DNA from: an uncultured Actinomycetota bacterium
GTDB taxonomy: Bacteria; Actinomycetota; Actinomycetes; Streptosporangiales; Streptosporangiaceae
Length of the DNA stretch: 64,000 bases
NCBI GenBank assembly: GCA_963808705.1
Contig: CAWEHB010000001.1
Location: 72,397 to 136,396, forward strand
Reading direction: 5' to 3'
Part shown: one piece after another, positions 2,864-41,628 of the stretch
How positions within the stretch are numbered: position 1 is the stretch's first letter
Layout: each line of letters opens with the position of its first letter
Translations under genes and position numbers: made by a program
The notes under the pieces: model-generated
The model's database searches: none
Seen by the model: only the letters and a program-made list of their open reading frames with translations
Told to the model about the DNA's origin: nothing

Positions 2864-2959
2864 CCCGGGCGACTCACCCTGGCAAGGGCGAGTCGCCCCA
2901 CCGGGAACTGCGAGATCCTTGATGCGGTCTGCATCCCCCTATGAGCGCAGGAGCGTGAC

Positions 2960-3406: not shown

Positions 3407-3534
3407 CCGACCCGGGCCGACCGGCCAGGCGGGCCGGGGTCTCGCCAACGGGAGGACACCACACCGGCCTGCGGGCCAGCGGATTCTGCCGTGCCCCTTT
3501 CTCGCCTGTCCCCGGGCCACTACGGTCATTCAAC

Positions 3535-4560: not shown

Positions 4561-4778
4561 CCGCAGACGCTGCGCCCCGCGCGGTCAGGTCAGGGTGGTG
4601 TAGTCGCCCGCTTGCCACTTGACCCAATCCCACTGCCCGAGGAACTTCTGACCGGCCGCAGCAGCCCAGAACCTCGCCCGGCTTCTCGAAGCGCAGGAAA
4701 CGTGGAGCTGCCGTGCAGATTGTGTGGGGTGCCCTCGGCCGACCGGGCGGGCTCATGGCTGCGGCAGAATAGACAGTC

Positions 4779-6038
4779 ATGTCCGAGGAAACCGGCACGA
4801 AGCCGATGGTGATCGTCGGTGGCGGGATCGCCGGGGGGAATGCCGCCGCGACACTGCGCGACGAAGGCTTCCGCGACCCGGTCGTGATCATCAGCCGGGA
4901 GCCGGGTGTGCCGTTCGGCCGTCCCCCGTTGTCCAAGACGTATCTGCGCTCCGAGGAAAGCCTCGACGACTGGTACGTCAGGCCGGCCGGCTGGTACGCG
5001 GCGCACGACGTGGACCGGCTGGCCGCCAGCGTCACGGCCATTGATCCCGCGGCGCACCGGCTGGTGCTGGACTCGGGCCGGGAGCTTGACTACCAGAAGG
5101 TCCTGATCGCGACCGGCGGGCAGAACCGGCGCCTGGCGATCCCCGGGTCCGAGCTGCCCGGGATCCACTACCTGCGCACGAAGGCCGACTGTGACGCGAT
5201 CAAGCGCGAAGCCATAACGGGCCGGCGCGCGGTCGTGGTGGGCATGGGGTTCATCGGCTGCGAGGTGGCGGCCTCGCTGACCCAGCTCGGGGTGCACGTG
5301 ACCACGGCCTTCCCCGAGCGCAACCCGCTGGAACGGGTCCTGGGCGCAGAGGTCGGCGCGGTGTTCGGCGCGATACACCGCGCCAAGGGAGTCACGCTGC
5401 TGGCCGGATCCCAGGTGGCCGCGTTCGAGGGGGCCGAACGCGTCGAGGCGGTAGTGATCAAGGACGGCTCCCGGGTGGCGTGCGACTTCGCCGTCGTCGG
5501 CGTCGGGATCAACCCCGACGTGCAGGCCGTCGCGGGGACGTCCGTTGCCCTGGAGAACGGGATTCTGGTCGACGAGCTGTGCCGGACCAGCGCGGCCGAC
5601 GTCTACGCGGCCGGCGATGTCGCCAACCAGCTCCACCCGCTCTTCGGGCGGGTCCGCGTCGAGCACTACAACAACGGCGAGAAGCAGGGAGCGGCGGCGG
5701 CGCGGTCGATGCTGGGCTCGACGGCGCCCTACGACTACCTCCACACCTTCTGGTCCGACCAGTACGAGCACAAGCTCGAGTACGCCGGCCACGCCACGAC
5801 CTGGGACGACTTCGCCGTCCGGGGCAGCCTCGCCGAGGGTAAGCTCATCGGCTTCTACCTGCAGGGCGGGGTGCTGCTCGCGGCCGTCGGCGTCGACCGC
5901 GGCGGCGATCCGGAACTGGACCACGACGGCGAGATGGCGGCGTGCGCGCGGCTCGTGGCCCAGCGCGCCCGGCCGGATCGGGGCGCGCTGACCGACGAGC
6001 ACACGGACCTCTGGTCGCTCGCGCGCCATGACGGATAA
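4779..6038 (+). CDS. FAD/NAD(P)-dependent oxidoreductase, ferredoxin-reductase type
   Basis: Two dinucleotide-binding motifs (VIVGGGIAGGNAA and VVVGMGFIGCEVA). The length and order are typical of putidaredoxin/rubredoxin reductase-like enzymes. Confidence 0.9.
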   Translation: MSEETGTKPMVIVGGGIAGGNAAATLRDEGFRDPVVIISREPGVPFGRPPLSKTYLRSEESLDDWYVRPAGWYAAHDVDRLAASVTAIDPAAHRLVLDSGRELDYQKVLIATGGQNRRLAIPGSELPGIHYLRTKADCDAIKREAITGRRAVVVGMGFIGCEVAASLTQLGVHVTTAFPERNPLERVLGAEVGAVFGAIHRAKGVTLLAGSQVAAFEGAERVEAVVIKDGSRVACDFAVVGVGINPDVQAVAGTSVALENGILVDELCRTSAADVYAAGDVANQLHPLFGRVRVEHYNNGEKQGAAAARSMLGSTAPYDYLHTFWSDQYEHKLEYAGHATTWDDFAVRGSLAEGKLIGFYLQGGVLLAAVGVDRGGDPELDHDGEMAACARLVAQRARPDRGALTDEHTDLWSLARHDG

Positions 6039-11555: not shown

Positions 11556-11666
11556 GCGCCGGAGCCGGGCCGGGAGGTCGTGATCTTTTCTCGGGCCAGC
11601 CCGCCCCGTAGGGTATTCATGGCGCCGGGCGGGTGGCCGGTAAGTTCCGAAAGGAAGTTGGCCGGC

Positions 11667-14114
11667 ATGGTCGAGGACACGGTAAAGAGCACGGGCTCTC
11701 TTCCCGAGCCGCATCCCCTGCGCGGCTGGCGCTCGGTGTTTTTCGCCCCCGTCGGCGACGGGCAGCGGCGGCGGCGCGGAAGCGACGGAGCGCGGCTGGT
11801 CGGCGCCATCCTCGCCCTGGCGGCCTGCCTCATCACCATCCACTTCAACTCGCGCATCGACCAGGCCATCGTCCAGGTCATCCACCCGCCGCCGCGGAGC
11901 ATCACGTGGCTGGTGACGGTGGTCTACGAGGCCGGCTCATTCGGCGTCATCATCGTCCTGGTGGGGCTGGCCCTGCTCGCGCGCCGCTGGGATGTCGCGC
12001 GCGATCTCGCGCTGAGCGCCGCCGGCACGGCCGCGGCGAGCGGGATCCTCATCGCATTGATCGGGCGCAACGGCGGCAGGCCGAGCGGAATCGTCATCCA
12101 CGGCTACTTCCTGAGTTTTCCCGTGCTGCAGATCGCCCTGTTCATGGCGGTCGCGACCGCCGCGCTGCCCTACCTGGCGCGCGGCGTGCAGCGCCTCATC
12201 GAGATCTTCATCGGCCTGGTGGCCCTGGCCTGCGCGGTCGGGGGTCACGGGCTGCCGCTCAACGTCCTCGGCAGCCTGGCCATCGGCTGGGGCGTGACGG
12301 CCCTGGTCCGGCTCGTCTTCGGCTCGCCGCTCGGCCTGCCGTCCACCGATGACGTGCAACTGCTGCTCGACGAGCTCGGCGTCCGCGCCGGCCGCGTGCA
12401 CCCGGCGTCACGGCAGGTCTGGGGGGTGGCTAAGTACGAGGCCACCGAGATCGGCCCGGACGGCTCGTCCGGCCCGCGCCTCCGGGTCGAGGTCTACGGC
12501 CGGGATGCCGCCGACGCCAAGCTCCTCACCAAGGCCGGCCGGTTCCTGCTCTACCGGGACTCCGGGCCGAGCCTGACGTTCACCCGGCTGCAGCAGGTCG
12601 AGCACGAGGCCTTCCTCACCGTGCGGGCGGGCCAGGCGGGCGTGTCCGTGCCCGAGATCCTCGAGGCGGGAACCGCGGGACCGTCGAAGGACGCGCTGCT
12701 CGCCTACCGCTGGCCGGCCGGGACGACGCTGTCCGAGGCCGACGCCGACGACGTCAGCGACGCCCGCCTGGACGAGCTCTACCGCCAGATGCTGACGCTG
12801 CGGAAGGCCCGCATCGCGCACGGCGCGATCAGCGGTGACGCGCTGCTGGTCGGCCCGGGCACGGAGGCCGTCGTCGTGACGGACTTCCGCAACGCCGTGT
12901 CGAATGCCGGGCCGGATCAGCTCGACCGGGACCTGGCCGGCGGGTTGGCCGCGACGGCGGTGGTGGTCGGCGCCGATCGGGCCGCGGCGGCCGCGGCCCG
13001 GAACCTGGAGCCCGAGGTGCTGGAGGGCGCCCTGCGGCATCTGGTCCGCGCCGGGCTCGACCCCGCGCTCATCCGGGACCTGCGCGGCAAGCGCGGGCTC
13101 CTGGAGGAGGTCCGCCAGCGCGCCGCGGAAGCCAAGTCGATCGAGGCGCCCAAGCTGGCGGAACCCCGCCGGGTGAGCTGGCCGACACTGATCATGATCG
13201 TCGGCACGCTCATCGGCGGCTGGGCCCTGATCGGGGTGCTCATCGACGTCTCCAAGTCCTTCGACACCGTGATCGGGGCGGACTGGCTCTGGGTCATCCT
13301 GGCGTTCGTGCTGGCCCAGCTGGCCTACGTGGCCTCGGCCGTGGAGAGCATCGGCAGCGTGGCCGGGCCGCTCCCGTTCGGGCGGACGCTGGCGGTCGAG
13401 GTCGCCAACACGTTCAGCTCCCTGGCCGGCGGGACCCCGGCCGTCTTCGCCACCCGGGTGCGCTTCTACCAGCAGCAGGGCTACGACGCCACGGTGGCCC
13501 TGAGCTCGGGCGCCATCATGTCCGCCGTCAGCTGGATCGCCATCGCGGTGCTGTTCGCCGTCTCGCTGCCGTTCGCCTGGGGGTCGATCCACCTCGAGGT
13601 CACCCCCGAGTCGGGAGACGACTCGAAGCTGGTATGGGTCATCCTGGCCGTCGTGGTGCTGGTCGCCCTGGTGATCGGCGTGGCCCTGGCCGTGCCCCGG
13701 CTGCGCCGGCTGGCGGTCGCGAAGGTGCGCCCCCGGATCAACGACATCTGGGGCAACCTCAGGCAGGTCGCCACCTCCCCGGGCAAGCTGGTGCTGCTGG
13801 TGGGCGGCTCGTTTGCGCAGAGACTGTTCGTGGCGATGGCCCTGTCCGTCTCGCTGCGGGCCTTCGACGACCATCTGCGGCTGCCCATCCTGATCGTGGT
13901 CATCACCCTGGCCGGGATCATCGGGGGCATCTCGCCGGCGCCCGGCGGCCTGGGGGTGGTGGAGGCGGGCATGATCCTCGGCCTCACCGCGGCCGGCGTC
14001 TCGGAGGCCGACGCCACCGCCGCGGTCTTCATCCAGCGCCTGTTCACCTCGTACCTGCCGCCCATCTGGGGCTGGATCACGCTCGTCTGGGCGCGGCGGA
14101 GAGAGTACCTGTGA
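11667..14114 (+). CDS. Large integral membrane protein. It has an N-terminal TM bundle, a central soluble kinase-like region and a C-terminal LPG-synthase-TM/flippase-like domain.
   Basis: ATG at 11667 with a GAAAGGAAG upstream. The C-terminal 330 aa are typical of the TIGR00374/LPG_synthase_TM family (..ISPAPGGLGVVEAG..). Confidence 0.8.
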   Translation: MVEDTVKSTGSLPEPHPLRGWRSVFFAPVGDGQRRRRGSDGARLVGAILALAACLITIHFNSRIDQAIVQVIHPPPRSITWLVTVVYEAGSFGVIIVLVGLALLARRWDVARDLALSAAGTAAASGILIALIGRNGGRPSGIVIHGYFLSFPVLQIALFMAVATAALPYLARGVQRLIEIFIGLVALACAVGGHGLPLNVLGSLAIGWGVTALVRLVFGSPLGLPSTDDVQLLLDELGVRAGRVHPASRQVWGVAKYEATEIGPDGSSGPRLRVEVYGRDAADAKLLTKAGRFLLYRDSGPSLTFTRLQQVEHEAFLTVRAGQAGVSVPEILEAGTAGPSKDALLAYRWPAGTTLSEADADDVSDARLDELYRQMLTLRKARIAHGAISGDALLVGPGTEAVVVTDFRNAVSNAGPDQLDRDLAGGLAATAVVVGADRAAAAAARNLEPEVLEGALRHLVRAGLDPALIRDLRGKRGLLEEVRQRAAEAKSIEAPKLAEPRRVSWPTLIMIVGTLIGGWALIGVLIDVSKSFDTVIGADWLWVILAFVLAQLAYVASAVESIGSVAGPLPFGRTLAVEVANTFSSLAGGTPAVFATRVRFYQQQGYDATVALSSGAIMSAVSWIAIAVLFAVSLPFAWGSIHLEVTPESGDDSKLVWVILAVVVLVALVIGVALAVPRLRRLAVAKVRPRINDIWGNLRQVATSPGKLVLLVGGSFAQRLFVAMALSVSLRAFDDHLRLPILIVVITLAGIIGGISPAPGGLGVVEAGMILGLTAAGVSEADATAAVFIQRLFTSYLPPIWGWITLVWARRREYL

Positions 14115-26952: not shown

Positions 26953-28581
26953 GTGGCCGCACCGATGGTCACCCCGCCCGTTGGCGCCAGCCTGCAACGC
27001 CTGGCCGAGCAGTCCTGGGACCGGCTTGGGGCCAGGTCCGTGCTGCACTACGAGGGCAGCCAGTGGACCGGGGAGCAGCTCGCCGAGCGTATCCGCCGGG
27101 TGGCCGGCGGCCTGCAGGAAGCGGGCCTGGAGCCGGGCGAGCGGGTGGTGGTCTGCATGGCCAACTGCCCCGAGGTCAGCATCACCTACTCCGCGGTATG
27201 GCGCACGGGCGCGGTGGCCACACCGGTGCTGTTCCTGCTGAGCGAGGACGAACTGCGGCACGTGGTCAGCGACAGCGGCGCGGCCCTGATCGTCACGACG
27301 CCAGAGTTCCTGCCGAAGGTGACGGCGGCAGCGGCCGACCTGCCCAGCGTGCGCGGCATCATCGTGGTCGGCGGGCCCATGGCCGAGCAGCGCGCAGCCG
27401 AGGTCGCCGGGCCGCCGCTGCTGCCGTTCGCCGAGCTGGAGACGGCCCCGCCCGCCCGGCTGGTCGACTCTGATCCGGCCGGGCTCGCGGCCCTGCTCTA
27501 CACGGGGGGCACGACCGGGCGCTCCAAGGGAGTGATGATCAGCCACAACGCGCTGTCCGCGGCGGCCTGGGCGGCCACGGCCACGTCCTACGACGAGGAC
27601 CTCAGCTCGGCCCTGCTCCCGTTGCCGCTGTCCCACGTCTACGGGCTGATGGTGAGCGTGATGAGCCTGCACTCGCCGGGCCCGGGCACCTCCGTGCTGA
27701 TGCGCTGGTTCGATCCCATCACCTGGCTGGAACTCGCGCAGCAGCACCGGATCAACATCAGCCCGCTGGTGCCGTCGATGCTGCAGATGCTGCTGCAGCA
27801 GCCGCTCGAGGACTACGACCTGTCCGCCCTGGCCCGGCTCACCAGCGGCAGCGCGCCGCTGCCGCCGCAGGTCACCGAGGATTTCCGCAAGCGGCTGCCG
27901 CATGTCGAGGTCGGCGAGGGTTACGGGTGCACCGAGACCGCGGCCATCATCTCGACCTCACCGCGCGGGCAGGTACGCGTGGGCAGCGTGGGCAGGCCGG
28001 CCCCGGGCGTGGAGGTTCGCATCGAGCAGCGGGACGGCTCGGCGGCGGCGCCGGGCGAGGAGGGCGAGATCTGCGTGCGCGGGCCGGTGCTGATGAGCGG
28101 TTACTGGAACGCGGAGGAGGAGACCGCGCAGGTCATGCGCGGCGGCTGGCTGCACACCGGCGACGTGGGCCGGCTCGACCAGGACGGCTACCTCTACATC
28201 GTGGACCGGATCAAGGACCTGATCATCCGCGGCGGCTACAACGTGTACCCCCGTGACGTGGAGGACGTCCTGATGCGGCACCGCGACGTGGTGGGGGCGG
28301 CCGTGGTGGGGCGGCCGGACGAGAAGTACGGCGAGGAGGTCGTCGCCTTCGTGCAACTGCGCGAGGGTGCCATGGCCGGGCCCGCGGACCTGATCGAGTT
28401 CAGCCGGAGTCACCTGTCCGCGGTGAAGTACCCGCGCGAGATCCGCCTCGTCGACGCGATCCCGCTGACCAGCGTCATGAAGACCGACCGCAAGCTGCTG
28501 CGCGCCATGGTCGCCAGCGACCAGGCCGAGGGCGACGAACCGCCCGGCCCGCTGGCCGAGGAGCCGCCGACCCTCCCTTGA
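26953..28581 (+). CDS. AMP-dependent synthetase/ligase (acyl-CoA synthetase family)
   Basis: LLYTGGTTGRSKGVMISH (the AMP-binding P-loop), GEGYGCTET, and GWLHTGDVGRLDQDGYLYIVDRIKDLII. Confidence 0.9.
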   Translation: MAAPMVTPPVGASLQRLAEQSWDRLGARSVLHYEGSQWTGEQLAERIRRVAGGLQEAGLEPGERVVVCMANCPEVSITYSAVWRTGAVATPVLFLLSEDELRHVVSDSGAALIVTTPEFLPKVTAAAADLPSVRGIIVVGGPMAEQRAAEVAGPPLLPFAELETAPPARLVDSDPAGLAALLYTGGTTGRSKGVMISHNALSAAAWAATATSYDEDLSSALLPLPLSHVYGLMVSVMSLHSPGPGTSVLMRWFDPITWLELAQQHRINISPLVPSMLQMLLQQPLEDYDLSALARLTSGSAPLPPQVTEDFRKRLPHVEVGEGYGCTETAAIISTSPRGQVRVGSVGRPAPGVEVRIEQRDGSAAAPGEEGEICVRGPVLMSGYWNAEEETAQVMRGGWLHTGDVGRLDQDGYLYIVDRIKDLIIRGGYNVYPRDVEDVLMRHRDVVGAAVVGRPDEKYGEEVVAFVQLREGAMAGPADLIEFSRSHLSAVKYPREIRLVDAIPLTSVMKTDRKLLRAMVASDQAEGDEPPGPLAEEPPTLP

Positions 28582-28680
28582 CCCGCCGACCGCCCCTTTG
28601 ACCCGCCGACCGCCCCCTTGGGCTGCCGACCGCCCCCTTGGGCTGCCGACCGCCCCCTTGGGCTGCCGGACCTCCTTCAG
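28561..28680. repeat. Tandem array of a 20-bp unit (about 6 units, 4 nearly perfect) between convergent stop codons
   Basis: Units: gagccgccgaccctcccttg / acccgccgaccgcccctttg / acccgccgaccgcccccttg / ggctgccgaccgcccccttg x2 / ggctgccggacctccttcag. The first unit encodes the last codons and stop of the ligase gene. Confidence 0.85.
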
Positions 28681-29351
28681 TGCGGGAGGGCGGACAGGGG
28701 GGTGATCGCGGAGACCTCGCCGGTGGGCGAGCCGTTGACGGCGGCGCAGGAGGGCAGGTAGGACCGGGCCCCGGGCAGCCACGCCGACACCACCACGCCC
28801 GCCGAGGCGCCGGGCGGGCTGACCCGCAGCCGCACGTACGGCGCCGGGCAGGCCGCCGCGGTTCCGGAGGGCTGGTCGGCCGCGGCCACCACCGCGTAGG
28901 CCGAGCCCCCCGGCGCCAGCGTGACCGCCGGCAGCGGGGAGGGAGCCTGCCAGGCCCCGTACATGGTCGAGTGCGCGCGGCGCAACGCGGTGGCGTTCCC
29001 GGCCGCGGTCACCGCGACCACGGCCGGCCAGCCGTGCATCTGGCAGGCGGCCGGGCCGGTGTTGGTGAACCGCAGGTACCCCCCGGCCTGGCCGCCCAGC
29101 GCCCCGGTATCGGTCAGGCCTACCTTCAGCTGGGCCGGGGCACACGCCGCCACCCCGCCCGCCGGCACCGACGGCGTGGCCGGCCCGGGCGCGGTGGCGG
29201 CCGGCGACGGGGTGCCGGCCGCCGAGGGGGTACCGGACGCGGACGGGGCGCCGGACGCCGCGGGCGCGCCGCCCGGGGCCGGCACGCTGCCGCACGCCGC
29301 CAGCACCAGCCCGCAAGCCACCACAACCACGCTCGCCGTTAATGACCGCAT
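28677..29351 (-). CDS. DUF4232-domain lipoprotein, copy A
   Basis: MRSLTASVVVVACGLVLAAC|GS lipobox, a Pro/Ala/Ser linker, then C..AQLKVGLTDTGALGGQAGGYLRFTNTGPAACQMHGWPAV (the DUF4232 pattern). The ATG at 29351 has a GAAGGGGGA SD. Confidence 0.8.
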   Translation of the reverse strand: MRSLTASVVVVACGLVLAACGSVPAPGGAPAASGAPSASGTPSAAGTPSPAATAPGPATPSVPAGGVAACAPAQLKVGLTDTGALGGQAGGYLRFTNTGPAACQMHGWPAVVAVTAAGNATALRRAHSTMYGAWQAPSPLPAVTLAPGGSAYAVVAAADQPSGTAAACPAPYVRLRVSPPGASAGVVVSAWLPGARSYLPSCAAVNGSPTGEVSAITPLSALPH

Positions 29352-30269
29352 GACTCCCCCTTCCGGTATCCGGCTCCGCAGAGAACCGTGGGTCATGGCC
29401 GGGACGGCAGGCTCACGCGGAGCGAGCCCCAGGCCCCGTGCGCTGATGACCCGCGCCGGCATCTCGCCCGACGGCGGGGCCTCCCGCGCCGAGGCCTGCA
29501 CGGCGAGCTCCCCGCCCGGCCCGGCGTGCCGGACCTGGAACACCACCACACCGCCCCCGGCGGCGTCCAGCGGGGTGAACCAGAACTCCCCGGCGCAGCC
29601 GGCCCGGCGGTAGCGCACCACCGGCCCGAACGGGCCCGCCGCCTGCGCCACGGCCGCGAACACCCCGTGCCCGGCCAGCGCGCGCAGCCCGGCCCGGGCC
29701 GGGAACCACCACGGCCGGCCGCACACCGGCGTGCGCGGCAGCGCCCGCATGCTCAGCCCCGCCAGCACGGCCCCGCCGGCCGCCGCACCGGCCCAGAACC
29801 AGGGACGGCCGAACGCGCCCGCCTCCCCGCGCAGGAAGACCACCCCGGCCACCCCGGCCACGGCCAGCACCGCGTCCCGGGCCAGCTCGCGCCCTGGGCT
29901 TTCTCCCGCCGCCTGCGGCGACGCGCGCCACTGGATGCACCCGCAGCCGCCGGGCACGCCCTTCGCCCGCGCGTACCCGAGCAGGACGCAGAAACCGGCC
30001 CCCAGCGCGGCCATGGCCGCCCCGCCCAGCGCTGGGTAAGCTCCGGCGCACACCACCAGCCCGACCGCGCACTCCAGGCCGCCGGCCGCCGCCTCCACCC
30101 GCCGCCACCGGCGCTTGGTCATCCCCAGCGCGCGCCGGACCGCGCTCAAGGAAGGCACCTGGCGGGCGGCCCGGTACAGCTTGCTCGCCCCGGCCACCAC
30201 CAGCAGCCCGCCGCAGCTGGCCACCCACCCGGCCAGGAACAACGACGCACCCGAACCGATCTCGACCAT
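28677..30269 (-). CDS. MauE/DoxX-like membrane protein, copy A. This ORF continues in frame, with no stop, into lipoprotein gene A.
   Basis: MVEIGSGASLFLAGWVASCGGLLVVAGASKLY...VPGGCGCIQW (a MauE-like CGC motif) with 4-5 TM helices. The MauE-homologous part spans about 29400-30269. The stop present in copy B (TAA at 33517-33519) is missing here. Confidence 0.6.
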   Translation of the reverse strand: MVEIGSGASLFLAGWVASCGGLLVVAGASKLYRAARQVPSLSAVRRALGMTKRRWRRVEAAAGGLECAVGLVVCAGAYPALGGAAMAALGAGFCVLLGYARAKGVPGGCGCIQWRASPQAAGESPGRELARDAVLAVAGVAGVVFLRGEAGAFGRPWFWAGAAAGGAVLAGLSMRALPRTPVCGRPWWFPARAGLRALAGHGVFAAVAQAAGPFGPVVRYRRAGCAGEFWFTPLDAAGGGVVVFQVRHAGPGGELAVQASAREAPPSGEMPARVISARGLGLAPREPAVPAMTHGSLRSRIPEGGVMRSLTASVVVVACGLVLAACGSVPAPGGAPAASGAPSASGTPSAAGTPSPAATAPGPATPSVPAGGVAACAPAQLKVGLTDTGALGGQAGGYLRFTNTGPAACQMHGWPAVVAVTAAGNATALRRAHSTMYGAWQAPSPLPAVTLAPGGSAYAVVAAADQPSGTAAACPAPYVRLRVSPPGASAGVVVSAWLPGARSYLPSCAAVNGSPTGEVSAITPLSALPH

Positions 30270-30345
30270 CCCGCCATCACCTGTCATTACTCGCGTCACC
30301 CTGCCCGGCCAAACGCCGGCTCCGGAGGGTGCCCGGAGCCGGTCG

Positions 30346-31086
30346 CTAGGGGTCGGCTATGACCCGGAAGCAGTAACTGGCGGTGGCCACGTTGCCCACG
30401 TCCAGGTCGACGTTGGCCGAGAAGCCGCAGGCGTCCTGCTCGCCGAACTGCCACAGGTGGGATCCGACCTTGGACTTTGACACCGAGGAGCACTCATCGG
30501 GGTCGAAGTTGGGCCTGTTCTTCAGCGTTCCGCACGGCTCCGGCTCGCTGGACCACACCGAGGCGGGAATGTTGAGGCCCCTGGCCGCGGCGATGGTCGT
30601 GCAGTTGGGGTAGGGCGAGAACGGAGCGCAGTACAGGGCCGGGTACAGCGGGTACGTGCGCAGGTGCGCGAAGTTGTAGTTCGCGATGTAGTTCGCCCAT
30701 CCGTCCCAGTAGCTCTGGCTCAGCGACGTGGAGTACTCCTGGTCGAGGTAGCACCACAGCTGGTTGCTGGCCGGCAGCTTGAGCTGCGCGACCGCGTTCC
30801 AGGCCGCGAGCATCGACGCCGCGTAGGTCTGCGCGTCGGCCAGGCCCTCCGCGAAGGACCCGCTCAACCGGTGCTGGGGGGGCGCGGAGACGCAGCCGAC
30901 GTAGGGCCCGCCGCTGGCCCACGCTCCCGCGCTCTCCGCCACCGCGGCGTCGGCGAAGATGTCGGCGGCCGGCGACGGCGAGAAGTAGCGGATCCAGAAC
31001 GCCGGGTCGCGGCCGAATTCGTTGCGCGCTGACTGGTAGGTGTGGTGGATCTGTCCGGCGGTGTCATATCCCGTCATGGCTGGCAT
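30346..31086 (-). CDS. DUF1906 (Rv2525c-like glycoside-hydrolase-like) protein, copy A. It has 8 Cys and no signal peptide.
   Basis: FWIRYFSPS..., LWCYLDQEYSTSLSQSYWDGWANYI..., and HLWQFGEQDACGFSANVDLDVGN parallel Rv2525c segments (IRYVS; IYASIDDNPSYEQY; HLHQVEID..GVDVNQ). The ORF starts 39 nt after the upstream stop, so there is no room for a signal peptide. Confidence 0.75.
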   Translation of the reverse strand: MPAMTGYDTAGQIHHTYQSARNEFGRDPAFWIRYFSPSPAADIFADAAVAESAGAWASGGPYVGCVSAPPQHRLSGSFAEGLADAQTYAASMLAAWNAVAQLKLPASNQLWCYLDQEYSTSLSQSYWDGWANYIANYNFAHLRTYPLYPALYCAPFSPYPNCTTIAAARGLNIPASVWSSEPEPCGTLKNRPNFDPDECSSVSKSKVGSHLWQFGEQDACGFSANVDLDVGNVATASYCFRVIADP

Positions 31087-31124
31087 CCCTCATACGAAAG
31101 CAGCGTGGTGGAATTGCGGCTGGA

Positions 31125-32600
31125 TCAGAACACGGCCGATACGTGCAGGCTCGTAGCGACCGTCCCGAGCGGGCTCAGGCCGGGAGAGAAGAACTCCAGG
31201 CGCGGGTTCTCCGGGCTTATGGTGAGCAGGGTTCCGCTGGGTAGCTGGTACAGGCCGAAATACTGCCGGCCGTGGCTGTAGGACCCGGCCAGCTTCCCGG
31301 TGGCCACGTCATAGGCGGAGATCCCGCCGGCCTTGGCCCCGCCCAGGACATAGAGCGTGTCCCCGGCGGGCGACAGGGCCGCCTTGCTCCACGGGGCGCC
31401 GCCGGGCGACGCGGGTGCCGGGAAGCTGACCTCGGCCTTGACCCGGAACGAGTCCGCCGGGTCGGCGACGACCGCCCGGCCGATGCCTGGCTTGGTCATG
31501 AACACCGTCCCCTCCGGGCGTGACTCCATGGTCACCGCGCTCGGCTTGGCCCGGGTCACGCCGAGCGGCGCGATCGCGGTCTGGGTCACCTCCCCGGTCT
31601 GTGCCGAGCTGACCTGCACCGCGCGGCCGTTGACGAGCCGGGCCACCTCTCCGGTGGCCAGCGTCACCACCGGCTCGCCGGCCGGCCAGGGCGCCGGAGA
31701 CGGCACGGAAACCCGGGCCCGCCCCGAGCCGAGCGGGAACACGCTGACCCACGGCAGCGGCGGCGGCTGCGGCCGGGACGCCGCCGGCTGCGGCTCCCTG
31801 GTCGTCCACACGAACAGGTCCGAGGAATTCGCCGCCGCGGTGGTCAGCGCCAGCGACGGGGCGTTGCCGAGGTGGAACGGCCCGGTGAACTCCCCGCTGT
31901 CCGAGTCGAAGTAGGCCAGTGCGTGGCGCGACGTCCAGGTCACGGCGTGCATGGGCATGATGCGACCGGTGTGCGACTCCGCCTTGTGGGTCAGGTGCTG
32001 CTGCGTGGGCTCGATAATGGCCAGCACCACCGCGACGGTCGCGGTACCCGACGCGAAGACCGGCGTCGCAAGAATGTTCGCGCCGTCCCGGATATCGGCG
32101 ATGGTCAGCGACCCCTGCTTGCTGATCACAGCCGAGGCCGAGTCGACGAGGGCCAGCGTCACCTTCGCCCCGGCCGCCACGGTGTGCACGGTGACCAGGG
32201 CCACGGTGGTCTGGTCGGGTGACGAGACCGGCGTCGACGCGAGCTTGGCGGCGACCGGCCTGGCCGCTATGGACCTGCCCTCGATGGACTTGGCCGCGGT
32301 CCGCGACCAGACCCGGGGAGCCGGATATGGTGCCCACGCGACCGCCCCGCCAGCGAGGGGTCTCGATTCGGGCATGCCGTACAGGAGCACGTACCGGGAG
32401 TCGGCCCCGGGAAGACTGTGAGACCGGGCTAGGCGGCCGGCCAGCGACGGGTCCGGCAGCGCGATGAGGGCACCGACCCCGAGGCCGCCGGCCAGCATCT
32501 CGCGGCGACTGACTCCTGGAACACCGCCGACAGCGGAGCGCGACGGGACCGCCGCGTCTGCCCGATGTACGGCTGCGTCTGCCCGATGTAGAGACCGCAC
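31125..32600 (-). CDS. Tat-signal secreted protein, beta-propeller-like C-terminus, copy A
   Basis: Twin-arginine motif SRREMLAGGLGVGALIALP. The C-terminus (LSPAGDTLYVLGGAKAGGISAYDVATGKLAGSY) is YVTN/lactonase-propeller-like. The GTG start has a GGAAGGAAG SD. Confidence 0.8.
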   Translation of the reverse strand: MRSLHRADAAVHRADAAVPSRSAVGGVPGVSRREMLAGGLGVGALIALPDPSLAGRLARSHSLPGADSRYVLLYGMPESRPLAGGAVAWAPYPAPRVWSRTAAKSIEGRSIAARPVAAKLASTPVSSPDQTTVALVTVHTVAAGAKVTLALVDSASAVISKQGSLTIADIRDGANILATPVFASGTATVAVVLAIIEPTQQHLTHKAESHTGRIMPMHAVTWTSRHALAYFDSDSGEFTGPFHLGNAPSLALTTAAANSSDLFVWTTREPQPAASRPQPPPLPWVSVFPLGSGRARVSVPSPAPWPAGEPVVTLATGEVARLVNGRAVQVSSAQTGEVTQTAIAPLGVTRAKPSAVTMESRPEGTVFMTKPGIGRAVVADPADSFRVKAEVSFPAPASPGGAPWSKAALSPAGDTLYVLGGAKAGGISAYDVATGKLAGSYSHGRQYFGLYQLPSGTLLTISPENPRLEFFSPGLSPLGTVATSLHVSAVF

Positions 32601-32764
32601 GTAGGTTACTTCCTTCCCCCCAGCCTCACACGGGTCATAGTCTCGTACCTGTTGCGAATTTCGGTGTATTTCAGTGCGAGATTCTCGATCGTGTCGTGGC
32701 GCACGAATTCAGCGGTGGCCGCGACCGCCGGGGGATACGGTAAGGCGGAGAAAGCCCAGTACAG

Positions 32765-33484
32765 CTAGTGCGGGAGGGCGGACAGGGGGGTGATCGCGGA
32801 GACCTCGCCGGTGGGCGAGCCGTTGACGGCGGCGCAGGAGGGCAGGTAGGACCGGGCCCCGGGCAGCCACGCCGACACCACCACGCCCGCCGAGGCGCCG
32901 GGCGGGCTGACCCGCAGCCGCACGTACGGCGCCGGGCAGGCCGCCGCGGTTCCGGAGGGCTGGTCGGCCGCGGCCACCACCGCGTAGGCCGAGCCCCCCG
33001 GCGCCAGCGTGACCGCCGGCAGCGGGGAGGGAGCCTGCCAGGCCCCGTACATGGTCGAGTGCGCGCGGCGCAACGCGGTGGCGTTCCCGGCCGCGGTCAC
33101 CGCGACCACGGCCGGCCAGCCGTGCATCTGGCAGGCGGCCGGGCCGGTGTTGGTGAACCGCAGGTACCCCCCGGCCTGGCCGCCCAGCGCCCCGGTATCG
33201 GTCAGGCCTACCTTCAGCTGGGCCGGGGCACACGCCGCCACCCCGCCCGCCGGCACCGACGGCGTGGCCGGCCCGGGCGCGGTGGCGGCCGGCGACGGGG
33301 TGCCGGCCGCCGAGGGGGTACCGGACGCGGACGGGGCGCCGGACGCCGCGGGCGCGCCGCCCGGGGCCGGCACGCTGCCGCACGCCGCCAGCACCAGCCC
33401 GCAAGCCACCACAACCACAGCCGTCCCGCCCGCCGTCCGCGCGGCCGCGCGGCAGGCGGAGCCGTGCACCGCCAAGAACCTCAT
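32765..33484 (-). CDS. DUF4232-domain lipoprotein, copy B
   Basis: MRFLAVHGSACRAAARTAGGTAVVVVACGLVLAAC|GS. The mature part is identical to copy A. ATG at 33484 with a GGAAGGAAG SD. Confidence 0.8.
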   Translation of the reverse strand: MRFLAVHGSACRAAARTAGGTAVVVVACGLVLAACGSVPAPGGAPAASGAPSASGTPSAAGTPSPAATAPGPATPSVPAGGVAACAPAQLKVGLTDTGALGGQAGGYLRFTNTGPAACQMHGWPAVVAVTAAGNATALRRAHSTMYGAWQAPSPLPAVTLAPGGSAYAVVAAADQPSGTAAACPAPYVRLRVSPPGASAGVVVSAWLPGARSYLPSCAAVNGSPTGEVSAITPLSALPH

Positions 33485-33516
33485 CGCTCTTCCTTCCGGT
33501 ACCCCGGCCTCGTCTG

Positions 33517-34419
33517 TTATGACGACAGACCGTGCGTCGTGGTTGGGGTGAGTCTCATCCGGGCGGGGGCCAGCGGGGTGCTCCGTGCGCTGATGATCCG
33601 GGCCGGCGCCTCGCCCGCGGCCGGGGTGTCCTGCACCGACGCCTGCACGGCCAGCGCCCCGCCGTACCCGGCGTGCCGGACCCGGAACACCACGGCGCGG
33701 TCCTGGCCGGGCCCGTCCAGCGGGATGAACCAGAACTCCCCGGCGCAGCCGGCCCGGCGGTAGCGCACCACCGGCCCGAACGGGCCCGCCGCCTGCGCCA
33801 CGGCCGCGAACACCCCGTGCCCGGCCAGCGCGCGCAGCCCGGCCCGGGCCGGGAACCACCACGGCCGGCCGCACACCGGCGTGCGCGGCAGCGCCCGCAT
33901 GCTCAGCCCCGCCAGCACGGCCCCGCCGGCCGCCGCACCGGCCCAGAACCAGGGACGGCCGAACGCGCCCGCCTCCCCGCGCAGGAAGACCACGCTGGCC
34001 ACCCCGGCCACGGCCAGCACCGCGTCCCGGGCCAGCTCCCGCCAGGAGACCGTCTCCGCCGGCCGCTGCGCCGCGCGCCACTGGATGCAGCCGCAGCCGC
34101 CGGGCACGCCCTTCGCCCGCGCGTACCCGAGCAGGGCGCAGAAACCGGCCCCCAGCGCGGCCATGGCCGCCCCGCCCGCCGCCGGGTACACCCCGGCGCA
34201 CACGACCACGCCGACCGCGCACTCCAGGCCGCCGGCCGCCGCCTCCACCCGCCGCCACCGGCGCTTGGTCATCCCCAGCGCGCGCCGGACCGCGCTCAAG
34301 GAAGGCACCTGGCGGGCGGCCCGGTACAGCTTGCTCGCCCCGGCCACCACCAGCAGCCCGCCGCAGCTGGCCACCCACCCGGCCAGGAACAACGACGCAC
34401 CCGAACCGATCTGGGCCAC
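33517..34419 (-). CDS. MauE/DoxX-like membrane protein, copy B (has its own stop)
   Basis: Track ORF 33517..34446. GTG at 34419 is preceded by AAGAAGGGA and gives VAQIGSGASLF..., parallel to copy A MVEIGSGASLF. Confidence 0.75.
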   Translation of the reverse strand: MAQIGSGASLFLAGWVASCGGLLVVAGASKLYRAARQVPSLSAVRRALGMTKRRWRRVEAAAGGLECAVGVVVCAGVYPAAGGAAMAALGAGFCALLGYARAKGVPGGCGCIQWRAAQRPAETVSWRELARDAVLAVAGVASVVFLRGEAGAFGRPWFWAGAAAGGAVLAGLSMRALPRTPVCGRPWWFPARAGLRALAGHGVFAAVAQAAGPFGPVVRYRRAGCAGEFWFIPLDGPGQDRAVVFRVRHAGYGGALAVQASVQDTPAAGEAPARIISARSTPLAPARMRLTPTTTHGLSS

Positions 34420-34463
34420 CCGGCATCCCTTCTTAACCGCCACCACACGTTTTCGGGCCGCCG

Positions 34464-35195
34464 CTAGGGGTCGGATACGACCCGGAAGCAGTAGTCGGGC
34501 GTGTTCACGTTGCCCAGGTCCAGGTCAACGTTGGCCGAGTAGCCGCAACCCACCTGCTCGCCGAACTGCCACAGGTGGGACGGGGCCTTCGAGCGCGACA
34601 CCGAGGAGCATTCGTCCGCGTCAAAGGCGGGCGGGCTCCCGAGGCTCCCGCACGGTTCCGGCTCGCTGGCCCACACCGAGGCGGGAATGTTGACGCCCTT
34701 GGCGGCGGCGAGGACCGAGCAGTTAGGGAACGGCGAGAACGGGTCGCAGTAGATCGCCGGGTACAGCGGATACGTGCGCAGGTCCGCGAAGTTGTATTCC
34801 GCGATGTAGTTCGCCCAGGCGTCCCAGTAGCTCAGGCTCAGCGACGTGGAGTACTCCTGGTCGAGGTAGCACCACAGCTGGTTGCTGGCCGGCAGCTTGA
34901 GCTGCGCGACCGCGTTCCAGGCGGCGAGCATCGACGCCGCGTAGGTCTGCGCGTCGGCTAGGCCCTCCGCGAAGGACCCGCTCAGCCGGGACTGGTACGG
35001 CGCGCTGACGCAGCCGACGTAGGGCCCGCCGCTGGCCCACGCTCCCGCGCTCTCCGCTACCGCGGCGTCGGCGAAGATGTCGGCGGCCGGCGACGGCGAG
35101 AAGTAGCGGATCCAGAACGCCGGATCCCGGCCGAACTCCTCGTGCGCCGACACGTACGTGTCGTGGATCGGTCCTGCGGTGTCATATCCCGCCAT
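34464..35195 (-). CDS. DUF1906 (Rv2525c-like) protein, copy B. It has 8 conserved Cys and no signal peptide.
   Basis: Paralogue of 30346..31086, with all eight Cys positions conserved. Confidence 0.75.
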   Translation of the reverse strand: MAGYDTAGPIHDTYVSAHEEFGRDPAFWIRYFSPSPAADIFADAAVAESAGAWASGGPYVGCVSAPYQSRLSGSFAEGLADAQTYAASMLAAWNAVAQLKLPASNQLWCYLDQEYSTSLSLSYWDAWANYIAEYNFADLRTYPLYPAIYCDPFSPFPNCSVLAAAKGVNIPASVWASEPEPCGSLGSPPAFDADECSSVSRSKAPSHLWQFGEQVGCGYSANVDLDLGNVNTPDYCFRVVSDP

Positions 35196-35250
35196 GGCTG
35201 ACTTCCCCTCCGGAGGCGGCGTGCTGGTAGCTGCGGACGGTGCGGCCGGA

Positions 35251-36717
35251 TCAGAACACGGCCGATACGTGCAGGTTGGTGGCGGCGGTCCCGAGCAGGC
35301 TCAGGCCGGGAGAGAAGAACTCCAGGCGCGGGTTCCCTGGGCTCAGGGTGAGCAGGGTTCCGCTGGGCAGCTGGTACAGGCCGAAATACTGCCGGCCGTG
35401 GCTGTAGGACCCGGCCAGCTTCCCGGTGGCCACGTCATAGGCGGAGATCCCCCCGGCCTTGGCCCCGCCCAGGACATAGAGCGTGTCCCCGGCGGGCGAC
35501 AGCACCGCCTTGCTGGCCGGGGCGCCGCCCGGTGCCGCCGGTACCGGGTAGTCCACCTGGGCCGTCACCCGGAACGAGTCCGCGGGGTCGGCGACGACCG
35601 CCCGGCCGATGCCCGGCTTGGTCATGAACACCGTCCCGTCCGGGCGTGACTCCATGGTCACCGCGCTCGGCTTGGCCCGGGTCACGCCGAGCGGCGCGAT
35701 CGCGGTCTGGGTCACCTCCCCGGTCTCCGCCGAGCTGACCTGCACCGCGCGGCCGTTGACCAGGCGCGCCACGTCCCCGGTGGCCAGCGTGACGACTGGT
35801 TCGCTGGCGGGCCAGGGCGCCGGGGACGGCACCGAGGCCCTGGCCTGGCCCGAGCCCAGCGGGAACACGCTGACCCACGGCAGCGGCGGCGGCTGCGGCC
35901 GGGACGCCGCCGGCTGCGGCTCCCTGGTCGTCCACACGAACAGGTCGGAGGAATTGGCAGCCGCGGCGGTCAGCGCCAGCGCTGGGGCGTTGCCGAGGTA
36001 GAACGGCCCGGTGAACTCCCCGCTGTCCGAGTCGAAGTAGGCCAGCGCGTGACGCGACGTCCAGGTCACGGGGTGTATGACCCGGGTGCCGCCGGTAGCC
36101 GGGTCAGCCTTGCGGGCCAGGCCCAGGCCGACGGGCTCGGTGATGGCCAGGACCACGGCGATGGTGGCGGTGCCCGGGGCGAAGACCGGCGTCGGGAGAA
36201 TGCTGGTGCCGTCCGCGATGCCGGTGATGGTCAGCGACCCCTGCTTGCTGATGACGGCCGAGGCCGAGTCGACGACGGTCAGCGTCACCTTCGCCCCGGC
36301 CGGCACGGTGTCCACGGTGACCAGCGCCACGCTGGCCTGATCCGCGGAAGCGGCCGGCGCGGACGTGAGCTGGGTGGCGACCGGTCTGGCCGCGGGCAGT
36401 GACCTGGCCGCGGGCAGTGACCTGGCCCGGGACGCGGGAGACAGCGCCGACGCGACCGATCCGCCGGGGAACGGCGTCGCCTCGGGCGTGCCGTAGAGGA
36501 GCACGTACCGGGAGCCAGAACCGGCGGAACTCGCCGACCGGGCGGACCCCGCGGCCGCGCGGTCCGTCAGGGAGATATCCGGCAGCGCGACGAGGGCGCC
36601 AACGCCGATCCCGCCAGCCAGCATCTCGCGGCGGCTGAGTCTCACTGCGGCATCGGCAGCGCCGGCGGCACCGGGCGGGGCGGCCGCGCGAGCCCGCTGC
36701 AAAGCACGCATGAGCAT
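35251..36717 (-). CDS. Tat-signal secreted protein, beta-propeller-like, copy B
   Basis: LSRREMLAGGIGVGALVALP. Paralogue of 31125..32600. The track ORF starts at TTG 36726. ATG 36717 or 36711 is more likely. Confidence 0.8.
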   Translation of the reverse strand: MLMRALQRARAAAPPGAAGAADAAVRLSRREMLAGGIGVGALVALPDISLTDRAAAGSARSASSAGSGSRYVLLYGTPEATPFPGGSVASALSPASRARSLPAARSLPAARPVATQLTSAPAASADQASVALVTVDTVPAGAKVTLTVVDSASAVISKQGSLTITGIADGTSILPTPVFAPGTATIAVVLAITEPVGLGLARKADPATGGTRVIHPVTWTSRHALAYFDSDSGEFTGPFYLGNAPALALTAAAANSSDLFVWTTREPQPAASRPQPPPLPWVSVFPLGSGQARASVPSPAPWPASEPVVTLATGDVARLVNGRAVQVSSAETGEVTQTAIAPLGVTRAKPSAVTMESRPDGTVFMTKPGIGRAVVADPADSFRVTAQVDYPVPAAPGGAPASKAVLSPAGDTLYVLGGAKAGGISAYDVATGKLAGSYSHGRQYFGLYQLPSGTLLTLSPGNPRLEFFSPGLSLLGTAATNLHVSAVF

Positions 36718-37066
36718 CACATCCAACCCAAGTCATAGCAAGCATGTATAAATCATATGATGAGCGATGAGGGTAAGGAGGCGGGTAAGAGCCTGTCAAG
36801 GGCCATCGGCCAGCATCCCCCGTGGCCCGCCTTCCCCTGACCAGCGGATTCGGGCATGCTTACGCCACCACACGGCATGCTCCGGATCTCCCCTCCTCGC
36901 GGTCCTGCTGGCGCGGTCGCGAGGGCTCCCGCCCGCGCACGAGCCATAGTCTCGCGGTTCCGCGATTATGGAGCGTTATTCGGGAAGATCCCCGGAACAA
37001 TCACGATGGGCGGCTTGTCCGTTCTGCCCCGCCCGTCCCGCGTGTCACGCCTGTCCCGCCGACCAC

Positions 37067-39348: not shown

Positions 39349-40779
39349 TTACCCGGAACGGCGCTGGTCTGCCGCTTGCGCCAGTTCCCGCACGAACGCC
39401 AGCGCGTTGACCGTGCCGACTCCCGACGCGAGATCGTAACCGGCCCGTGCCCGGAAGCCCGGCACGGTGTGCAGCCTGCCGCCCTGGCGGAACGAGACGG
39501 TGTTGTTGCCGGACACCACGTCCACGATGCCGGGCGCGTCCCGCGCCGCGAGCCGGTAGAGGTAGCCGTTGATCACTCCGAGCGGGTGGCCGGCCGCCTG
39601 GTCGGCCAGGGCCACGATCCCGGCGAACTCCGGTGTCGCCTCGCTGGTGCCGCAGGTCGGGTACCATCCGGCGGGCTGGCCGCCGAAGCTCTGGTACATG
39701 TCGGCCGCGCCGTTGCAGGCGCCGCTCATCGAGATGTCGGGCACGCCGCGCTGGCCGCCCACGACGGCCCGCACCCCGTTCTGGAACCGGGGCCGGGCGA
39801 ACACGACCGACTTCCCGCCGCCACCTGCCAGCGGGTTCGGCCCGGCGTTGCCGACGGCGAACTCGTTGGTCCCAGCGTTGAAGGTGTCGTTCCAGACGGT
39901 AGGCGGCGCGACGTTGTCACCTGCCGCGTTGAGGTGCAGCTGGGTTCCGCCGACCCCGGTCACCAGCGGGTCGCTGTCCGGCCACGACGTCACCGGGTGC
40001 AGGTAGTACGTCACCTCGTTGAACTTGACGTCCGCCGCGCCGCTGTCACCGGAGGCGGCCAGGACGGTCACGCCCTTGCGCGCCGCGTCAATGTAGGCGC
40101 CGCGCAGCCTGAGCAGCGACTGCCGGGCCGGGAAGGTCTGCTCCGTGGCGCTGAAGCTCTGGCTGATCACCCCGCCGAGGTGGTGGTTGATCACGTACTT
40201 CTCGGCCGCGACGATCTGCGCGAAGCCGGTCGTGCCCTCGTTCTCGGAGGTCGGGGTCTCGACGAGCAGGATGCTCGCGCCGGGGGCGATCGCGTGGGCG
40301 TACTCGACGTCCAGGTCGGTCTCGCCGGCCCAGCCTTCCCGGTCGGAGGCGGGCTGGTACGGCGGGACCTTCCCGGCGGGCTGGATGACCTTCAGCGACG
40401 GCGGCGCGGGCAGGCCCGCGGCCCGGTCGAACCGGCTGAGGTCACGCCGGACGGTCGGGGACCCGAACGAGTCGACGATGATGATCGTCTGCCCGCGGCC
40501 GGTGACCCCCTGCCGGTACAGCCGGGGCAGGTTGTAGGCCTGCCGGATCTGCGCGGGCAGGTAGCACGCGATGTGGTAGTGCCGCTCGCAGAACGCGGTG
40601 GTGGGCGGCGCGGGCAGGGCCCCGGCCAGGACGTGGATCGCGCCCGGCCGGATCGCCACGATGTTCCCCGGCCCAGCCGCGCCCTGGCGGGCGTGGCCCG
40701 CGACCGCGAGGGCGCCGACCCCGGCGACGGCCGCGGCCAGCAACGGTACGGCGGCTACCGCAGGCCGGGCGAGGCGCAT
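39349..40779 (-). CDS. Secreted S53 (sedolisin/kumamolisin-like) serine peptidase
   Basis: Signal peptide, IIIVDSFGSP, ETDLDVEYAHAIAPGA, and CGTSEATPEFAGIVAL (the catalytic Ser region). Confidence 0.85.
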   Translation of the reverse strand: MRLARPAVAAVPLLAAAVAGVGALAVAGHARQGAAGPGNIVAIRPGAIHVLAGALPAPPTTAFCERHYHIACYLPAQIRQAYNLPRLYRQGVTGRGQTIIIVDSFGSPTVRRDLSRFDRAAGLPAPPSLKVIQPAGKVPPYQPASDREGWAGETDLDVEYAHAIAPGASILLVETPTSENEGTTGFAQIVAAEKYVINHHLGGVISQSFSATEQTFPARQSLLRLRGAYIDAARKGVTVLAASGDSGAADVKFNEVTYYLHPVTSWPDSDPLVTGVGGTQLHLNAAGDNVAPPTVWNDTFNAGTNEFAVGNAGPNPLAGGGGKSVVFARPRFQNGVRAVVGGQRGVPDISMSGACNGAADMYQSFGGQPAGWYPTCGTSEATPEFAGIVALADQAAGHPLGVINGYLYRLAARDAPGIVDVVSGNNTVSFRQGGRLHTVPGFRARAGYDLASGVGTVNALAFVRELAQAADQRRSG

Positions 40780-41126: not shown

Positions 41127-41235
41127 CCGTCGGCCGGCGCCGTCACGGCCGTCCCGTCACCACCGGCCCGCCGCCCCGTCACCGCCGGTCCCGCGCCCGT
41201 CCTGACCATCCCGTCGACCATGGCAGGATGTGCGC

Positions 41236-41628
41236 ATGCGGTTCGTCATCCGGGTCCTGATCACCGCCGTGGCCCTGCTCGTGGCGACGCTGGTGCTCCC
41301 CGGCATCGAGGTGACGGCCGGCACTACCCTGTCCAAGGTCGCGACCCTGGTCGTGGTGGCGCTGATCTTCGGCGTGATCAACGCCGTGCTCAAGCCGATC
41401 GTCAAGGTGGTCGGCTGCGTCTTCTACATCCTGACCCTCGGCCTGATCGGCCTGGTGGTCAACGCGCTGCTGCTGTGGCTCACCAGCTGGGTGGCAGGCA
41501 AGCTCAACCTGCCGTTCCACATCACCGGCTTCTGGCCGGCGTTCTGGGGCGCGATCATCGTGGGCGTGGGGGCGTGGCTGCTGAGCATCACGCTGGGCGA
41601 GAACCGGCACCGCCAGCAGGACAGCTGA
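41236..41628 (+). CDS. Phage-holin-4_2 family small membrane protein (4 TM)
   Basis: MRFVIRVLITAVALLVATLVLPGI...VINAVLKPIVKVVGCVFYILTLGLIGLVVNALLLWL is typical of the 'phage holin family protein' common in actinobacterial chromosomes. Confidence 0.8.
   Translation: MRFVIRVLITAVALLVATLVLPGIEVTAGTTLSKVATLVVVALIFGVINAVLKPIVKVVGCVFYILTLGLIGLVVNALLLWLTSWVAGKLNLPFHITGFWPAFWGAIIVGVGAWLLSITLGENRHRQQDS

Follow-up and report, generated by a model that had tools for sequence, protein, structure and literature searches.

A tandemly duplicated gene cassette of uncultured actinomycetes and a candidate Tat hitchhiking route for its lysozyme-like enzyme

The tyrosinase of Streptomyces is the closest described case of a signal-less enzyme leaving the cell with a partner: MelC2 is exported as a complex on MelC1, a helper bearing a signal for translocation by the twin-arginine (Tat) machinery, in a process termed Tat hitchhiking (PMC2758597). 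Two further points of reference are Rv2525c and the DUF1906 family, which are Tat-secreted and resemble glycoside hydrolase family 25 (GH25; PDB 1SFS), and the MauE proteins, which substitute for DsbB in E. coli by means of a periplasm-facing CGC motif located in the loop between transmembrane segments 3 and 4 (TM3-TM4) and needed for this activity (preprint 10.64898/2026.03.05.709764). Here, we describe a tandemly duplicated cassette in a 64,000-nucleotide stretch of DNA (hereafter the window; contig CAWEHB010000001.1, positions 72,397 to 136,396) from an uncultured member of the Streptosporangiaceae. It encodes a 491-amino-acid β-propeller protein with a twin-arginine (RR) signal (P491), a signal-less lysozyme-like protein of 246 amino acids with eight cysteines (C246), a MauE-like membrane protein and a DUF4232 lipoprotein. 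The cassette is conserved and undescribed, although assembled from known kinds of parts: a first inspection of the window (the sequence-only reading) could not match this gene combination to any described system, and searches of the literature on DUF4232, DUF1906, 1SFS and GH25 with Tat yielded no description of it either. Our best reading, which we hold tentatively, is that the lysozyme-like enzyme hitchhikes through Tat on the propeller carrier and is oxidised by a private MauE, with DUF4232 as an optional partner.

Similarly to melC, the cassette is an actinomycete operon in which the RR signal belongs to the upstream gene and the downstream enzyme lacks a signal peptide. The parts are nevertheless different, since a 491-amino-acid propeller takes the place of the small copper chaperone MelC1 as carrier and a cysteine-rich lysozyme-like barrel that of the copper oxidase MelC2 as cargo, and a MauE-type oxidase and a lipoprotein are added; moreover, hitchhiking is established for MelC and proposed here for the cassette. 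With Rv2525c and DUF1906, C246 shares a remote homology, a link to Tat export and perhaps a lysozyme-like barrel fold, but it scores below the Pfam threshold, lacks a Tat signal of its own, carries eight conserved cysteines and is invariably accompanied by a propeller gene. Class I lasso-peptide clusters likewise place a dedicated membrane redox protein beside a disulfide-containing product, in the form of DoxX/thiol-oxidoreductase pairs; the cassette differs from these in that its substrate would be a 246-amino-acid enzyme and not a peptide synthesized ribosomally and then modified post-translationally, and in that the biosynthetic genes are absent. Like the DsbB-type MauE proteins (10.64898/2026.03.05.709764) and mauE/mauD, the membrane protein belongs to PF07291, has its CGC in the TM3-TM4 loop and is encoded beside a cysteine-rich and presumably exported protein. 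Unlike known MauE proteins, it possesses an extra C-terminal domain and five further conserved cysteines, has no thioredoxin-fold partner alongside, and is sometimes fused to DUF4232 instead of a thioredoxin domain.

The two units lie head to tail on the minus strand, copy A at 28677-32600 and copy B at 32765-36726, and contain the same genes. In copy B, gene 1 encodes P491-B (35251-36726, an open reading frame (ORF) of 491 amino acids with RREML at 36619-36633 and a family-consensus start at ATG 36711), gene 2 the lysozyme-like C246-B (34464-35195, a 243-amino-acid ORF assigned from the family alignment and profile), gene 3 the MauE-family membrane protein (33517-34446, 309 amino acids, PF07291, GGCGC at 34087-34101) and gene 4 the DUF4232 lipoprotein (32765-33484, 239 amino acids, lipobox LAAC, PF14016 with E=5e-17, preceded by a Shine-Dalgarno sequence and ATG). 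In copy A, P491-A (31125-32600, a 491-amino-acid ORF with RREML at 32493-32507) and C246-A (30346-31086, a 246-amino-acid ORF) are followed by one ORF of 540 amino acids (28677-30299, GGCGC at 29937-29951) in which the MauE-like protein runs in frame into DUF4232, the intervening stop codon having been lost through a deletion of 11 nt by comparison with copy B. Both copies retain the Shine-Dalgarno sequence and ATG before DUF4232, the ATG of copy A being internal, at 29351. The sequence-only reading had reported two complete four-gene copies; the duplication stands, as shown by blastn and by the intact ORFs of both copies, which have a high GC content at third codon positions, whereas copy A has three ORFs in place of four genes.

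With each GTDB species represented by a single genome, a conservation scan yielded 41 loci, which all belong to metagenome-assembled genomes (MAGs) of uncultured Streptosporangiaceae, Streptosporangiales or other Actinomycetes; the closest relatives of the window are uncultured Streptosporangiaceae-like MAGs, and the P491 and C246 families are common in uncultured Streptosporangiales-like actinomycetes of peat and soil. According to tblastn, the order propeller, 246-amino-acid protein, MauE-like protein is found in about 38 of the 41 loci and DUF4232 in 28 of them. The most distant locus, L045, is only a seeming exception, its upstream ORF having SRRQLL and its downstream ORF scoring as MauE. 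The families thus co-occur well beyond this genome, so that the refuting condition named in the sequence-only reading does not apply, but the obligatory set of four genes did not hold, and from these gene orders the unit is best described as a three-gene core plus an optional DUF4232. Around the cassette loci, no further flanking gene family is conserved. The trxC gene next to copy B, which the sequence-only reading had pointed out, encodes a cytoplasmic-type thioredoxin and is adjacent only in the window and in loci L005, L006 and L007, whose entire chromosomal neighbourhood matches that of the window; we rejected it as a component of the system, as its adjacency is confined to syntenic close relatives and is probably incidental, reflecting local synteny only.

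Two irregular cases were encountered among the loci. In L036, cassette copies at 1783-5670 and 9626-13514, ~7.8 kb apart, have 100% protein identity, which points either to a duplication of very recent date or to an error of assembly. A single MAG, MFD05377.bin.2.80, holds three cassette contigs (L012, L016 and L041) in which the genes are split across several reading frames, as pseudogenes or through long-read indel errors.

The C246 family comprises ~230 clusters, all annotated as "hypothetical", and an exhaustive profile search retrieved only 221 clusters (50% identity) among 1.84 billion representatives. In the alignment, 20 of 20 family members begin with M-x-GYD and have no signal peptide: C246 starts three to five residues before the conserved GYD motif, there is no space for an upstream extension of its ORF and, in contrast to Rv2525c, it bears no Tat signal itself. 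The same alignment reveals as invariant D8, D115-x-E117, W212-Q213 and D227, which may correspond to the catalytic Asp on strand β1, the D-x-E and the WQY...VD motifs of GH25, together with eight cysteines, and it thereby bears out the earlier description of a signal-less protein with eight conserved cysteines. In C246-A these cysteines are residues 65, 112, 153, 162, 185, 199, 220 and 239; they are dispersed and lack CxxC spacing, an arrangement typical of disulfides.

For C246, phmmer found no match among PDB sequences and NCBIfam returned nothing usable. A profile built from C246 and 68 distant relatives matches PDB 1SFS over residues 29-229 (full length) with E=2.2e-17, and the narrower profile of the 20-sequence C246 family does so with E=1.2e-4. 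The matched 1SFS segment itself scores 48.6 bits on PF08924 (Rv2525c_GlyHyd-like; threshold 27.2), and one of the 69 distant relatives matches PF08924 (E=0.002). Judged from these profiles, C246 is a remote relative of DUF1906 (PF08924) and not a Pfam member, so that the Rv2525c/DUF1906-like assignment made at first sight is right in the sense of a remote homology, though not of Pfam membership. The AlphaFold2 model of C246 (predicted local distance difference test (pLDDT) score 78, predicted TM-score 0.82) consists of alternating β/α units followed by β strands, and in a viral structure library its 23 best matches consist entirely of phage lysozymes or muramidases (best E 7e-6, TM-score ~0.5). 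Among the distant relatives, fusions to Amidase_2, PG_binding_1 or SLH domains are found.

In the P491 family, the alignment shows conservation of SRRE[MI]LAGG followed by a hydrophobic stretch. Pfam TAT_signal is sub-threshold on P491 (E about 0.05-0.06) and weak in 13 of 20 family members; the twin-arginine signal attributed to this protein is thus upheld by the conserved RR-x-[ML]-L motif and not by the Pfam model. Pfam and NCBIfam gave nothing else usable for P491, and neither phmmer nor the family profile matched a PDB sequence. The AlphaFold2 model of P491-A (pLDDT 66), a protein with no cysteine at all, is disordered to about residue 116 and then displays ~27 strands, and according to the model and Foldseek the propeller occupies residues ~117-465, i.e. 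the bulk of the mature protein; the YVTN-like propeller was therefore correctly recognised in the sequence-only reading, but it is not a "tail". Foldseek matched P491-A to β-propellers of every kind with E ~1e-7 to 1e-6, WD40 proteins, BamB, NirF and the heavy chain of methylamine dehydrogenase being among them, and the modelling predicts that P491 is a roughly seven-bladed propeller. A specific kinship with the methylamine dehydrogenase heavy chain was considered and rejected, as all kinds of propeller score alike.

Evidence for hitchhiking comes from the distant relatives of C246. At least 55 of the 69 are signal-less and start within a few residues of a conserved G-x-D motif, and four (P0436, P0441, P0468 and P0495) have an RR leader of their own, P0441 being without an upstream partner gene. 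Signal-less relatives are preceded by an RR-bearing, β-rich protein of 460-560 amino acids in L046 (559 amino acids, TSRRDFIKV), L049 (460 amino acids, LTRRQVLKG), L050 (534 amino acids, FTRRTLLKS) and L052 (531 amino acids, ITRREVLKV), and these partners share with P491 an architecture made of the RR motif and YVTN-like "LYVxD...GGxW" blades. The pair is directly followed by tatA in L050 and L051, with tatC as well in L050, where a DUF4232 gene is also nearby; in L049, a membrane protein with GGCGC is encoded downstream. Many distant relatives have no MauE-like membrane protein, yet the RR-bearing partner is kept or Tat genes are adjacent. Hitchhiking would be expected to leave just such a pattern, in which the signal is either in cis or on the neighbouring gene and one clade has tat genes, and the cassette itself displays the traits of a Tat hitchhiker pair, namely an RR signal on one partner, none on the adjacent partner, and a conserved pairing. 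This evidence, drawn from motifs and gene neighbourhoods, points to Tat hitchhiking as the export route of the signal-less enzyme. The sequence-only reading had assigned the propeller no function and had offered no way for an enzyme lacking a signal to reach the outside of the cell.

Two other features were observed in the distant relatives. A conserved N-terminal segment of ~60-100 amino acids precedes the RR motif and contains a CxxC (e.g. CTDCADAYF...HGAT) with weak CMD/AhpD-like Pfam matches; it is seen at L046 925-2604, L050 2381-3985 and L052 1665-3260 and in proteins P0441 and P0495, and, depending on the locus, this leader is borne by the propeller partner or directly by the lysozyme-like domain. 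In addition, a gene for an extracytoplasmic function (ECF) sigma factor often adjoins the pair (L046, L049, L055, L057, L058 and the P0436 contig), sometimes together with a BNR/Sortilin-like or DUF4232 protein, a possible anti-sigma factor. The genes adjoining the cassette include no ECF sigma gene, the remainder of the window not having been scanned.

The MauE-like proteins of the two copies score 36.1 and 37.4 bits on PF07291 (37.4 for copy B; gathering threshold 27), and most of their homologues carry a precomputed PF07291 assignment. The GGCGC motif (C118, C120) is invariant in the family and sits between hydrophobic segments 89-107 and 137-157, corresponding to TM3-TM4; further conserved cysteines are in membrane helices, and the extra C-terminal domain, of ~120 amino acids, has two conserved cysteines and no Pfam match. 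The sequence-only reading was accurate in recognising a MauE-like protein with a CGC motif and an extra C-terminal domain, and its suggestion of an oxidative-maturation helper gains in plausibility, as the retained CGC is the DsbB-like active site of the preprint and fits an eight-cysteine partner. Its DUF4232 lipoprotein is likewise confirmed, by 60-63 bits on PF14016 (threshold 27) and by a lipobox, LAAC followed by GS, after a hydrophobic segment. The fusion of MauE to DUF4232 seen in copy A also exists in L006 and in seven metagenome clusters, and these recurrent in-frame fusions imply a predicted topology with the extra C-terminal domain in the cytoplasm and DUF4232 on the outer side of the membrane.

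The evolution of the two copies differs between the two halves of the cassette. A blastn comparison of copy A with copy B gives three collinear blocks: 30334-32512 with 34454-36638 (2204 bp, 85.6% identity), covering the first two genes; 29433-30282 with 33580-34430 (856 bp, 93%), in the MauE-like gene; and 28679-29330 with 32767-33418 (652 bp, 100%), which is the DUF4232 coding sequence and the gene-conversion tract. In a 150-bp sliding comparison the copies form a mosaic, with identities from 72% to 100%. By its first two genes, copy B is grouped with the first copies of L005 and L006 (84-89% identity), and copy A with their second copies (75-84%). Since A-type and B-type orthologues are thus shared by three species, the duplication is, on these groupings, older than the speciation of the window genome, L005 and L006. 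The MauE-like and DUF4232 genes show the reversed pattern, the copies within each of these genomes being more alike; for DUF4232 the identity between within-genome copies is 100% in the window, 95% in L006 and 83% in L005. This pattern indicates that the 3' half was homogenised by repeated gene conversion. The two copies are therefore old paralogues in which carrier and enzyme diverge together as matched pairs, whereas the accessory genes, kept alike by gene conversion, behave as interchangeable.

Taken as a whole, each cassette may be a self-contained export and maturation module for an extracytoplasmic lysozyme-like enzyme of the GH25/DUF1906 superfamily. Gene 1 would supply the propeller with its twin-arginine signal; the eight-cysteine barrel enzyme, devoid of a signal, would fold and bind the propeller in the cytoplasm, and Tat would carry the pair across with the enzyme as hitchhiker. 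Outside the cell, the neighbouring MauE-family protein, a putative DsbB-like oxidase with a CGC active site, would introduce four presumed disulfides, and the DUF4232 lipoprotein, sometimes fused to MauE, would act as an optional surface-tethered accessory; the likely substrate would be a cell-wall glycan. Beyond the observed gene content, conservation, remote homology, motifs and evolutionary pattern, we infer that the two proteins form a complex and leave the cell together, that MauE makes the disulfides, and what the substrate is. DUF4232 is recurrently fused to MauE at the place where other MauE proteins have a thioredoxin domain, and a bolder version, which we regard as improbable, would make the triad the private biogenesis pathway of a new heteromeric cell-surface enzyme, Tat-exported on its propeller subunit and oxidised by its own MauE-type oxidase, with DUF4232 as a non-thioredoxin disulfide relay or docking partner; in that event, no cell-wall hydrolase before it would have been a Tat hitchhiker, and no MauE system outside methylamine dehydrogenase would have had a dedicated client.

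Several points weigh against the proposed hitchhiking and oxidation of C246. Its identity as a GH25/DUF1906-like enzyme is not recovered by the standard searches: PF08924 has no match in either copy at E<=1 and, at E<=10, none in any of the 20 family members, Pfam does not call GH25 on C246, and Foldseek of the C246 model against the PDB returned generic TIM barrels only (E>=0.02), 1SFS and Rv2525c both being absent from the top 50. An hhalign comparison of the C246 family profile with a Cpl-1 GH25 sequence gave a probability of 0.2, which is not significant. As for the carrier, the P491 family hidden Markov model is significant only for the upstream partner of L049, so that the other distant partners are not demonstrably P491 homologues as far as their sequences go, and co-export is deduced solely from how the genes are ordered. 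Tat transports proteins in folded form, and C246, presumed to need four disulfides, would have to fold in a reducing cytoplasm. The oxidation step is affected by a positive-inside count, admittedly crude, that places the CGC loop in the cytoplasm unless the fifth hydrophobic segment, a weak one, does not span the membrane, and by the lack of a thioredoxin-fold carrier (MauD/DsbA), none being encoded in the cassette or conserved in its flanks. Finally, dN/dS, the ratio of non-synonymous to synonymous substitution rates, is only moderately low for the first two genes (0.28-0.49).

Some of these points bear on rival explanations. C246 might stay in the cytoplasm, acting for instance on recycled wall fragments or on another sugar substrate, with cysteines that bind metal or sense redox and with the C-terminal domain of the MauE-like protein as its partner, while the Tat propeller acts separately outside. 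The missing signal peptide, the count that can put the CGC loop on the cytoplasmic side and the fusions, which imply a cytoplasmic C-terminal domain with two conserved cysteines, all agree with this scheme. We nonetheless consider it unlikely, given that relatives of C246 have an RR leader of their own or fusions to SLH, PG-binding or amidase domains, that tatA and tatC are adjacent in one clade, that the cysteines are spaced as is typical of disulfides, and that the canonical MauE CXC motif faces the periplasm (10.64898/2026.03.05.709764).

The same absence of a signal, in a lysozyme-like enzyme encoded beside a small multi-pass membrane protein, would also suit a release of the holin-endolysin type, in which the MauE-like protein lets the muramidase cross the membrane while propeller and lipoprotein serve as regulators or wall-binding parts; the best fold matches of C246 are indeed phage lysozymes, and the literature lists DUF1906 domains among phage lytic proteins. 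This seems very unlikely to us, because the membrane protein scores as MauE with an invariant CGC, no phage genes are near the cassette, and many distant relatives devoid of the membrane protein retain the RR-bearing partner or adjacent Tat genes. Still more improbable, in our estimate, is a two-subunit redox enzyme comparable to methylamine dehydrogenase, with the propeller as heavy subunit and C246 as a light subunit having a MauE-dependent cross-link or cofactor. In its favour, MauE is required to mature the six-disulfide light subunit of methylamine dehydrogenase, whose heavy chains are among the better single-propeller matches (target-normalised TM-score ~0.5, E ~1e-6); the propeller matches are, however, generic, with WD40 proteins, BamB and NirF scoring equally, the P491 profile has no PDB sequence match, C246 is predicted to be a lysozyme-like barrel and not MauA-like, and no MauG, MauD, amicyanin, haem-protein or thioredoxin-fold gene is in the cassette or conserved in its flanks. 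The cytoplasmic, holin-like and amine-dehydrogenase-like explanations each fit the gene contexts of the distant relatives less well than Tat hitchhiking does.

Each copy is preceded by a low-GC region, as the sequence-only reading had stated, with a GC content of 0.579 at 32601-32764 and 0.582 at 36727-36860 compared with 0.721 for the window; these two minus-strand regions do not align to each other by blastn or in the sliding comparison. That of copy A has a Shine-Dalgarno sequence, GGGGGAAGGAAG, before the GTG at 32600, and that of copy B, which is divergent from trxC, has a TTGACA hexamer without a full promoter match. Promoter and terminator consensus scans yielded no sites, and an Rfam scan of the whole window gave zero matches. 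The flanking genes are an acyl-CoA-synthetase-like (AMP-binding) gene, TauE, trxC, psuG/psuK and an S8 peptidase; no transposase is among them, and the inverted matches at the cassette are merely GC-rich and of low complementarity, in agreement with the initial statement that neither transposase nor inverted repeats flank the copies. A mobile element or recent insertion was rejected, transposases and terminal repeats being lacking and the same chromosomal site being occupied in L001, L005, L006 and L007.

A tandem array at 28566-28668 contains 5.2 copies of the 20-nt unit GCCGACCGCCCCCTTGGGCT; with its first bases it overlaps the AMP-binding gene (26953-28581) at the 3' end, and its remainder fills the convergent gap up to the stop codon of the copy A DUF4232. 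Within the cassette, 18-nt coding repeats encode SLPAAR-SLPAAR in the linker of P491-B (36386-36431) and Pro/Ala/Ser-rich six-residue repeats in the DUF4232 linkers (29169-29271 and 33257-33359). A few kb from the cassette are genes for a Phage_holin_4_2 family membrane protein (41206-41628) and for the S8 subtilase (39349-40779), the latter syntenic in L001, L005, L006 and L007.

The 491- and 246-amino-acid proteins represent two families without Pfam annotation. If the proposed reading is true, Tat hitchhiking, so far a matter of cofactor enzymes and tyrosinase, would also cover a wall hydrolase that is rich in disulfides and has no cofactor. MauE, only recently shown to replace DsbB, would gain a natural dedicated client in Actinomycetota. 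The tandem repeat would then also offer a clean natural example of the distinction between the parts of a module that must match and those that are interchangeable.

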